A stretch of 64,000 bases of DNA, from the NCBI GenBank assembly GCA_965199495.1, contig CBDASK010000003.1, positions 1,760,001-1,824,000 of the forward strand, in the 5' to 3' direction. The DNA is from Abditibacterium sp. Its GTDB lineage: Bacteria; Armatimonadota; Abditibacteriia; Abditibacteriales; Abditibacteriaceae. Made by a program: the position numbers and the translations under genes. The first letter of the stretch is position 1; the number at the start of each line of letters is the position of its first letter. The notes under the pieces are model-generated. The model did not search any database, was not told the DNA's origin, and saw nothing but the letters and a program-made list of their open reading frames with translations. Positions 52,228-55,200 of this stretch are shown in pieces.

Positions 52228-55200
52228 GTAGTCAAGTCCTCGACCGATTAGTATCGCTTAGCTTCATGTGTTAACCACACTTCGACTTGCGACCTATCCA
52301 CCTGGTTATCTTCCAGGGGTCTTACCCTTTCGGTGGGAAAATTAATCTTGAGGTCGGCTTCGCACTTAGATGCTTTCAGCGCTTATCCGATCCAGACGTA
52401 GCTACCCGGCGTTTACACCTAGCGGCATAACCGGTACACCAGAGGTCTGTCCATCCCGGTCCTCTCGTACTAAGGACAGCTCCTCTCAATTTTCCTTCGC
52501 TCATAGCAGATAGGGACCGAACTGTCTCACGACGTTCTGAACCCAGCTCGCGTGCCGCTTTAATGGGCGAACAGCCCAACCCTTGGGACCTAATACAGCC
52601 CCAGGATGCGACGAGCCGACATCGCACGTGTCTTCCGTCATTACGGACGGCGTAGACTATATCTTCACCTTTCCACAACGTATGGCGTTGTGATGAAGGG
52701 CTGGCGTGTTATAAACATCGTAAATTTACCGCTTCCGCAGTAGGATGTCTATCGGGGTTAATTCTAACCCTCAGTCGTTACGGGGTCACATCTATTTCGA
52801 TGGACTTCCCACGGTATTGTCCTCATCCTTGTTCACAGGATGATAGGAGTTCACCGTTATAAGCCAGTTCTTTTGACCATATTTCTATGGCCACACCCCT
52901 GATGTTTGTGCAAACATAAGTTGAGGTGCCAAACCTCCCCGTCGATATGAACTCTTGGGAGAGATAAGCCTGTTATCCCCAGGGTAGCTTTTATCCGTTG
53001 AGCTTCGGCGATCCCACTTTCCACCGTCGGATCACTATGTCCTGCTTTCGCACCTGCTCGACTTGTAGGTCTCGCAGTTAAGCTCACTTTTACCATTGCG
53101 CTCTACAGACGATTGCCAACCGTCTTGAGTGAACCTTTGAACGCCTCCGTTACCATTTGGGAGGCGACCGCCCCAGTCAAACTACCCACCTGCCACGGTT
53201 CCTAAACCCGATAAGGGTGTAGGTTAGAGCCGTCAGAATGAAAGGGTAGTATTCCACCAGCGGCTCACCACCCCCCGAAAGGGATGGATCAAAGCCTCCT
53301 ACCTATCCTCTGCATTCATTCCAACGACTCAATGACAAGCTATAGTAAAGCTCCATGGGGTCTTTCCGTCTTGCTATGAGAAACGAGCATCTTCACTCGT
53401 AATACAATTTCGCCGAGTCCCACGTTGAGACAGCGTTCAAGTCGTTATGCCATTCGTGCAGGTCGGAACTTACCCGACAAGGAATTTCGCTACCTTAGGA
53501 CCGTTATAGTTACGGCCGCCATTGACCGGTGCTTCAATTCAAAGCTTCGGCTTACGCCTAACCTCTCCTCTTAACATTCCGGCATTGGGCAGGCATCAGC
53601 CCCTATACGTCGTCTTACGACTTCGCAGAGACCTATGTTTTTGGTAAACAGTCGCTTGAACCGATTCTCTGCGGCCCCTTCTCGCTCCAGCAGCAAGTGC
53701 TTTCACCAGAGTGGGGCTACCCTTCTTCCAAAGTTACGGGTACAGATTGCCGAGTTCCTTAACGTGGGTTCTCTCGCGCGCCTGAGGATACTCTCCTCAC
53801 CTACCTGTGTCGGTTTGCGGTACGGGCACCCATAGACACATGTTACAAGCTTTTCCAGGCCGTATAGGTTTAACCACTTCGAGCTAAGCTCTCGCGATTC
53901 CCCTTGATTATAGGAACCGTCTCCCCTGCGGGAGTAGGCTGACCAACCGACGCACTTGTCAACTAATCTATGAGTGGGGCAGGAATATCAACCTGCTGTA
54001 CATCGTCTACGCCTTTCGGCCTCGACTTAGATCCCGCCTGAGCATCAGCGGACGAACCTTGCTGATGAAACCTTAGGTTTTCGGCGGCAAAGATTCTCAC
54101 TTTGCTTTTCGCTACTCATTCCTGGATTCGCACTTGGGGTTCGTCCAGCCGCGCTTACGCTCGACCTTCGACCTACTACCCAACGCTCCCCTACCACTGA
54201 TACAAATGTATCAATCCGTAGCTTCGGTGCCTGGCTTAGCCCCGTTGAATTTTCCGCGCGTCATCACTCGATCAGTCAGCTATTACGCACTGTTTAAAGG
54301 GTGGCTGCTTCTAAGCCAACCTCCTGATTGTCTGAGCGACGTCACTTCGTTAACCACTTAGCCAGAACTTTGGGACCTTAGCTGACGGTCTGGGCTGTTT
54401 CCCTCTCGACAATGAAGCTTATCCCCCACTGTCTCACTCCCGCACTTAAAAACAACGGCATTCAGAGTTTGATAGGGGTCGGTAGGCTTGTGGGCCCCCT
54501 AACCCTTTCAGTGCTTTACCACCGTTGTTCAACATGCGAGGCTAATCCTAGAACTATTTCGGGGAGAACCAGCTATATCCGAGTTCGTTTAGCGTTTCAC
54601 CACTACCCACAGCTCATCCAAAGCGTTTTCAACCGCCACTGGTTCGGACCTTCACGAAGTTTTACCTTCGCTTCATCCTGTCCATGGGTAGATCACTCGG
54701 TTTCGGGTGTGTCGCGTGCAACTTGTCGCCCTATTAAGACTCGGTTTCCCTACGGCTGCGTCCCTACGGACTTAACCTTGCCACACACGGCAACTCCCAG
54801 GATCATTCTACAAAAGGCACGCCGTCAGGCTGCATAAATGCGTAGCCCTCCGACTGCTTGTAGGCACACGGCTTCAGGGACAGCTTTTCCCCTCTCGGGG
54901 TGCTTCTCACCTTTCCCTCACGGTACTTGTTCACTATCGGTCAATTGGAGTGTTTAGCCTTAGGGAGTGGTCTCCCCAGATTCATGCAGGATTTCTCGGG
55001 TCCCGCATTACTCGGGTACACATCAGCAGGCCAGTTCGTTTCGTCTACAGGACTTTCACCTTCTATGGTTCATTGTTCCAAAGAGATTCGACTACAAACT
55101 GACTTTATAAACTGCTTTCCATTAAAGGAAGTTGTGCCCCACGACCCCAATCCTGTAAAGCCAGGACTGGTTTAGGCTGATCCCGTTTCGCTCGCCACTA

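Follow-up and report, generated by a model that had tools for sequence, protein, structure and literature searches.

Group I introns are removed from RNA in two guanosine-initiated steps (reviewed in PMC3984707) and are known from the large subunit (LSU) ribosomal RNA (rRNA) of archaea, bacteria and organelles. Here we describe a group I intron of 299 nt without an open reading frame (ORF), which lies in the peptidyl-transferase centre of the only 23S rRNA gene in an Abditibacterium sp. assembly (GCA_965199495.1). The window, i.e. the whole stretch analysed, comprises 64,000 nucleotides of contig CBDASK010000003.1 (positions 1,760,001 to 1,824,000 of the forward strand), and positions are those of the window unless the contig is named.

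The nearest published relatives are the archaeal IA3 introns, of which IA3.2 and IA3.3, from two archaeal sequences, are reported at LSU/2500 and others at LSU/2593 (Nawrocki et al. 2018, PMC6125680). IA3.2 and IA3.3 share the insertion site with the Abditibacterium intron, yet are about 800 nt long versus 299 nt here, as compared by site and length. IA3.1 is drawn, like the Abditibacterium intron, with P1, P2, a short P5, two helices between P7 and P3' and P9.0/P9; its P3-J3/4-P4, P4'-P6, J6/7 and J8/7 motifs are nearly identical, and it has its own endonuclease in P6. In contrast to the archaeal introns described in that paper, the one from Abditibacterium is bacterial, ORF-less and has a bulged C instead of an A in P7.

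In the 23S rRNA genes of the Candidate Phyla Radiation (CPR, Patescibacteria) 433 group I introns, 222 of them ORF-less, are reported to cluster round the peptidyl-transferase centre; LAGLIDADG_2 was recorded in 44 such introns (Tsurumaki et al. 2024, PMC11270868). As in Abditibacterium, these introns occupy domain V of single-copy rRNA genes, and ORF-bearing and ORF-less alleles share one site. The frequent CPR site 23IS11 is drawn beside the 2500 mark, its identity with 2500 being a reading of the figure layout; according to the same paper sites 23IS9-11 were previously unreported in known bacteria. Abditibacterium, on the other hand, is a non-CPR host with a 4.8-Mb genome, a type of host outside that study. 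Similar domain V inserts are reported in PMC11809585.

Organellar LSU introns at site 2500 number 22 in GISSD, including Prasinoderma Pr.rnl.2 and Floydiella Ft.rrl.6 (PMC3873408, PMC2997540), and splicing of Pr.rnl.2 was shown by reverse-transcription polymerase chain reaction (PMC3873408). They lie at the same 2500/2501 position and likewise occur in ORF-less and LAGLIDADG forms, but are classified as IB4/IB, a ribozyme lineage different from the IA3-type at the same site here. In addition, the split of Pr.rnl.2 falls within the 3' P9 region, where its cis-spliced orthologues have their ORF (PMC3873408), whereas the ORF place in the IA3-type site-2500 family is P6. Thus the organellar precedent named in the original prediction stands for the site, while the published match for the ribozyme is the archaeal IA3 (PMC3873408, PMC6125680). 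The cyanobacterial L2593 introns of Synechococcus and Thermosynechococcus resemble the Abditibacterium intron in residing in bacterial 23S rRNA and in their short P5, short P2 and P7.1/P7.2; they differ by the insertion site and by a full single-motif LAGLIDADG gene in each (Haugen et al. 2007, PMC1995217).

The 23S rRNA gene on the minus strand is interrupted by a 299-nt insert at 52923..52625, read in RNA sense. The upstream exon ends with GUUUGGCACCU at 52924 and the downstream exon restarts with CGAUGUCGGC at 52624. The U of GUUUGGCACCU is the last base of the 5' exon and corresponds to position 2500 in E. coli K-12 rrlH, which places the insertion between U2500 and C2501; the last base of the insert is a G (52625). 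Together, exon U and terminal G fit only one choice of boundaries, 52923/52625. The host genome (3 contigs, 95% complete, 4.8 Mb) has a single gene for each of 23S, 16S and 5S rRNA. A BLAST search of this genome with the intron gave no second copy, and a search with Rfam RF00028 (Intron_gpI) no further group I intron.

RF00028 matched the insert at 52634-52923 over the whole model with 33.4 bits (E 6.5e-7). The match was found by an E-value search, as Rfam at gathering thresholds reports just the 23S and 5S genes in the window. The fold of the insert had a z-score of -5.53, and none of 100 shuffled sequences was equally stable. P1 to P10 as well as P7.1 and P7.2 were all placed with standard pairs. 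For comparison we used two sets of alleles: four close alleles, with congener G011 being 92%, congener G004 82-83% and metagenome contig L158 87% identical, and 21 ORF-less site-2500 introns of less than 340 nt that share the P7 motif of the Abditibacterium intron. In P1, U2500 pairs with intron G26, and exon GCACCU stands opposite guide positions 26-31 with a U.G wobble at the splice site that is present in all 21 aligned introns. The P10 strand can pair with the six bases that open the 3' exon, leaving one A bulged, and the predicted pairing of the guide with the ligated exons amounts to -15.7 kcal/mol. The core has a P3-P7 pseudoknot with a bulge, a guanosine-binding G-C pair, a conserved J8/7 and a P4-P5-P6 domain with J3/4, J4/5 and J6/7; P4 and P6 are 100% paired in the 21 introns. 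The terminal G is preceded by a 3-bp P9.0, which is 95% paired in the same set. The features, including the two flanking ones of the 23S gene, are as follows.

52228..55442, minus strand: 23S rRNA gene, the assembly's sole copy, 2916 nt after removal of the intron (Rfam LSU_rRNA_bacteria, RF02541, 2662.6 bits over this span; one full BLAST match in the genome)
52625..52923, minus strand: group I intron after U2500, 299 nt, ORF-less, terminal G at 52625 (RF00028 match, sequence, E. coli numbering)
52924..52929, minus strand: 5' exon strand of P1, U2500 at 52924 forming the U.G wobble at the 5' splice site (sequence; 21/21 introns)
52893..52905, minus strand: internal guide, P1 strand 52898-52893 and P10 strand 52905-52899 (pairing, predicted energy)
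52902..52917, minus strand: P1 extension hairpin (P1a), its 3' arm being the P10 guide (pairing; invariant in the four alleles, hence no covariation)
52875..52892, minus strand: P2 with GAAA tetraloop (changes on both sides in 3/7 pairs among the four alleles and 7/7 among the 21 introns)
52861..52867, minus strand: P3 5' strand, partner 52707-52701 (pairing, 21-intron alignment)
52811..52857, minus strand: P4 (52857-52852 with 52816-52811), J4/5, P5 and P5a (pairing, alignments)
52782..52810, minus strand: P6, P6a and a short P6b hairpin, site of the LAGLIDADG_2 ORF in long alleles (pairing, ORF mapping)
52772..52778, minus strand: P7 5' strand, which contains the bulged C and, at 52776, the G of the guanosine-binding G-C pair (5/6 P7 pairs invariant in 21 introns)
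52755..52770, minus strand: P7.1 hairpin (pairing, four-allele comparison)
52711..52752, minus strand: P7.2, outer and inner helix (3 pairs changed on both sides among the four alleles)
52701..52707, minus strand: P3 3' strand (pairing)
52668..52699, minus strand: P8 and P8a (pairing, four-allele comparison)
52654..52667, minus strand: J8/7 and P7 3' strand, C of the guanosine-binding pair at 52655 (RF00028 match, pairing)
52625..52653, minus strand: P9.0 (3 bp), P9 with GUAA loop, omega-G (pairing, 21-intron alignment)
52014..52130, minus strand: 5S rRNA gene, single copy (Rfam)
55816..55844, minus strand: perfect sigma-70 consensus, 12/12, with 17-nt spacer, upstream of the 23S gene (sequence)

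Selection on this structure was examined by covariation. In the alignment of the four close alleles pairing is kept in 99.5% of 395 cells. Both partners differ in 14 of the 99 pairs, while shuffles gave a mean of 5.6 double-changed pairs (none of 500 reached 14) and slid controls 0-2. For the 21 introns the paired cells amount to 94.8%, and both bases vary in 23 of 53 core pairs, compared to a mean of 14.9 in shuffles and 7-13 in slid controls. Furthermore, P4 pair 5 covaries with a base of J8/7: U-A goes with U in 28 introns, and C-G or U.G with C in 11, in a count of 49 parsed of 69 introns that includes 6 other combinations and about 5 rows mis-registered by the pattern. G004 changes all three bases. 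This covariation fits a tertiary triple contact reportedly proposed by Michel and Westhof in 1990. The controls support, rather than prove, that the predicted structure is under selection. P5/P5a (52817-52848) is invariant in the four alleles (0/32 positions vary), compared to variation at about one third of positions in the other peripheral helices, and diverges widely among more distant site-2500 introns. Pairing of the P5a loop with P1a or with P7.2 was considered and dropped, as no covariation was seen by eye. Taken together, we conclude from sequence and predicted structure that the insert is an intact ORF-less group I intron.

As to the subgroup, P7 is followed directly by P3' in the IB4 layout, without P7.1 and P7.2, in agreement with the L1931 and L2604 loci. 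In the Abditibacterium intron about 60 nt of helices separate P7 from P3', namely the two extra helices P7.1 and P7.2 with compensatory changes. Such helices are a feature of class IA (PMC3984707, PMC1995217), and because both are present the intron was assigned to this class. Inspection by eye shows agreement with the published structure of IA3.1 in core motifs and in the order of the helices (PMC6125680). In a comparison of subgroups by sequence profiles the intron scored 142.9 bits with the other L2500 introns (n=58), 33.0 bits with a mixed L1951 set (n=5) and 17.2+14.0 bits with the L2593 introns (n=5; best of 50 shuffles -0.3); profiles of L1931 (n=7) and L2604 introns (n=9) gave no match. 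L2593 is an IA3 site (PMC6125680). By motif likeness and sequence profiles we thus regard the intron as IA3-type. The original prediction had placed a 299-nt group I insert, probably of subgroup IA, at 52625..52923 with exon U and terminal G, recognisable P3 and P7 elements and extra sequence between P7 and P3'. Its coordinates were exact, P3, P7 and two extra helices could be placed, the covariance-model match on which it had staked the claim was obtained, albeit below the gathering score, and structure and covariation bore out the subgroup, which is now narrowed to IA3-type.

The insert offers no room for a homing endonuclease, as had been foreseen. On the RNA strand the longest frames without a stop comprise 27-32 codons, and those on the complementary strand do not exceed 68; a profile of 12 site-2500 endonucleases detected no remnant in the intron. 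In long site-2500 alleles all 12 ORFs tested belong to Pfam LAGLIDADG_2; their starts lie in or near P4'/P6 and their ends immediately before P7, which places them between P4' and P7. The Abditibacterium intron has a 15-nt hairpin at this place. Among the matches listed, 66 complete GTDB introns were sorted by their LAGLIDADG_2 gene, leaving out L077 as a duplicate of the G004 intron: it looked intact in 13, was broken or partial in 3 and absent from 50.

The wider distribution was assessed by a GTDB scan for a G followed by the 3' exon, a pattern that leaves introns ending in A uncounted. At least 117 loci had this 3' junction. Among those listed, record titles, which can mislead in the case of metagenome bins, named Actinomycetota 21 times, Pseudomonadota 13, archaea 13, Chloroflexota 9, Planctomycetota 5, Acidobacteriota 3, Omnitrophota 3 and Abditibacteriota once, besides many CPR bacteria. 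Both exons were recovered for 67 of the loci listed, with introns of 247-1591 nt. L068 has the junction pattern without an upstream exon or P7 motif and is probably not an intron. The view that bacterial rRNA introns are uncommon, on which the original prediction drew, holds for RefSeq-type genomes and fails for uncultured lineages, given the number of these loci and the ORF-less introns of CPR 23S genes (PMC11270868).

In the host class, 3 of 31 genomes had the intron junction, 10 an uninterrupted junction and 18 neither exact pattern, the site most likely being unassembled in the latter. None of the three carriers (host genome G000, G004 and G011) had an uninterrupted 2500 junction. On a host 23S tree of intron-free sequence (15 rows) these three congeners form one clade (100/100), which suggests a single intron gain in one Abditibacterium clade. 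The intron-free congeners comprise all three with two 23S copies and one with a single copy, too few to test a link to copy number. The three Abditibacterium introns also form one clade (100/100) on an intron tree of 61 cores, located inside an unstarred group of 22 rows (91/87) mostly from Actinomycetota and Chloroflexota, five with ORFs; the tree is unrooted and names no donor, and 8 introns with unparsed or too long cores were left out. Phage and plasmid collections contained no match to the intron and viral contigs no match to the junction pattern, thus no carrier was identified. Part of the window was present in 20 of 24 listed sequencing runs, 6 of which are recorded as RNA (best RNA run 0.54 of 35 words), which has no bearing on splicing, expression or habitat.

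Splicing of the intron with ligation of the exons is very probable. The guide would pair with the 5' exon to form P1 with its U.G wobble, and a free guanosine bound at the G-C pair of P7 would attack after U2500. The P1a hairpin would mask the P10 guide until this first step, then open, so that the guide could pair with the 3' exon. Omega-G would then enter the guanosine site and U2500 would be joined to C2501, restoring the peptidyl-transferase loop; host RNA chaperones may assist in the cell. Because the intron sits in the only 23S gene of the assembly, we infer that its splicing is essential for the host ribosomes. The original claim that this rRNA copy depends on splicing is in line with copy number, structure and covariation.

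Some observations speak against this account. Splicing was deduced from DNA sequence and predicted structure, and a single assembled rRNA copy could conceal collapsed copies. The score of 33.4 bits is below the 50-bit gathering score of RF00028. That score is a library threshold and not a biological criterion, and RF00028 missed every archaeal IA3 and IB4 intron in PMC6125680. As to the covariation, a structure drawn on the Abditibacterium intron is favoured over the slid controls, shuffles ignore relatedness, and 4 of the 49 parsed introns combine U-A with G, outside the simple triple rule. Finally, no ORF-bearing allele was found in the class of the host or among 8 metagenome matches, so that loss of the gene after arrival is something we infer. 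The comparison of relatives for LAGLIDADG alleles proposed in the original prediction was answered by the site-2500 introns of other lineages and not within the host class, and there was no other rrl copy to compare.

That the insert might be an assembly artefact or foreign sequence of organellar or contaminant origin could be suspected from its lower G+C content (45.8% vs 52.0% in the exons) and from the misassembly to which rRNA genes in metagenome bins are prone. Yet it lies within a 4.72-Mb contig, the flanking exons group with the genus on the 23S tree, and two congeners and one metagenome contig have the same intron with compensatory differences; these independently diverged alleles refute an artefact, the chance of which we consider negligible. 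It is also very unlikely that the insert is excised without ligation in the style of RNase III intervening sequences or retained in the mature rRNA. Fragmentation of 23S rRNA by intervening sequences has been described (PMC11270868), and the title of one cited paper reports an unspliced 23S group I intron. Such intervening sequences, however, are long hairpins in variable helices, while this insert, with a full ribozyme core, interrupts the peptidyl-transferase loop of the only copy and has kept the guanosine-binding pair, omega-G, P9.0 and the P10 guide, which serve ligation. Within the splicing account, a requirement for a host protein, be it an RNA chaperone or a borrowed maturase, appears unlikely. 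The LAGLIDADG protein of a Thermotoga 23S intron has a maturase-like activity on which that intron relies, and in other systems splicing is aided by StpA and S12 (PMC3984707); the invariance of P5/P5a is what a binding site might show. On the other hand, this invariance comes from four related sequences and is marginal given paired sites and several helices, and the canonical core, the stabilising elements P2, P7.1/7.2, P8 and P9 and a stable fold are all present. Splicing as outlined above is therefore the reading we favor.

The history of the intron leaves more latitude. An allele bearing LAGLIDADG_2 in P6 may have entered one clade of the genus by homing into its ancestor; the endonuclease gene would then have been deleted down to a short hairpin and the ribozyme inherited vertically under selection for splicing. 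We consider such a loss in this lineage probable. Somewhat doubtful, though plausible, is that the intron arrived without the gene by homing driven in trans, recombination through the rRNA flanks or reverse splicing, a question of history that is compatible with splicing. It would agree with the ORF-less state and short P6b of all four close alleles, with the 50 of 66 complete introns among the matches listed that have no endonuclease gene, and with a search of 26 further genomes of the family, in which no site-2500-type ORF was detected; in phages, homing of ORF-less introns driven in trans is known (PMC3984707). Yet ORF-bearing and ORF-less alleles interleave on the intron tree and decayed intermediates exist, which fits repeated loss, and the only LAGLIDADG_2 of the genome sits in an intein of DnaX and is presumably unable to cut rDNA. 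For its location in this intein the latter was also rejected as a candidate for the lost gene. The intein (DNA polymerase III gamma/tau; contig 4709335-4709865) is 32% identical to a site-2500 endonuclease. We thus favor loss of the gene after homing.

Several related loci were noted in passing. A locus titled Coxiella endosymbiont of tick (L042:1170-2001) has an 832-nt site-2500 intron with an endonuclease gene broken across several frames. Six site-2500 introns from Nitrososphaerota (L055, L084, L098, L100, L107, L110; 610-1591 nt) form one clade (100/100), and their long inserts gave no LAGLIDADG_2 match. The 23S gene of a close relative on L158 (1278-2703; exon 100% identical over 549 nt) harbours three group I introns: one at 1931, whose ORF looks LAGLIDADG-like by eye and is cut by the edge of the locus, an ORF-less one at 1951 with an IA3-like core, and the ORF-less one at 2500. 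In G025, a genome of the same order, site 2500 is free; a 625-nt IA3-like intron with part of a LAGLIDADG_2-like ORF follows 2511 (L018:659-1283), a second ORF-bearing intron ends just upstream near 2449 (L018:1-600), and an RF00028 match of 73.2 bits lies downstream of the 5S gene (L018:1951-2231).

With respect to gene context, the 23S gene is not preceded by a 16S or tRNA gene, and the 23S-5S unit has its own 12/12 sigma-70 consensus. The rRNA genes are unlinked and have no spacer tRNAs: the single 16S gene (about 1860900-1862500 of the host contig) and the single 23S-5S unit are on opposite strands, with about 46 kb between them. Elsewhere in the window two small adjoining ORFs of 108 and 99 aa (48458-49083, minus strand) resemble by eye a ParD/ParE-type antitoxin-toxin pair.

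What is new here is modest, namely the occurrence in non-CPR hosts, as site and intron type are already known from CPR bacteria and archaea. A literature search, with most subscription journals outside its reach, revealed no publication on Abditibacterium or on an intron of non-CPR bacteria at site 2500. Taken singly, a further intact group I intron at a site already described is of little consequence. Yet default Rfam annotation misses such introns (33 bits vs a cut-off of 50), and the survey suggests that rRNA group I introns are under-counted in non-CPR uncultured bacteria. This bears on 23S annotation, on the design of probes and primers and on the question why bacterial rDNA was thought to resist introns. 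In Abditibacterium, a bacterium with a genome of ordinary size, the production of ribosomes likely depends on a single splicing reaction at the catalytic centre. We tentatively suggest that the IA3-type 2500 family with LAGLIDADG_2 in P6 has spread well outside the CPR and the archaea, to lineages whose genomes are ordinary, where it may persist mainly with a single 23S gene. If so, each ribosome in such genomes would depend on splicing inside the peptidyl-transferase centre, and the Abditibacterium clade would provide a route to its study outside the CPR.

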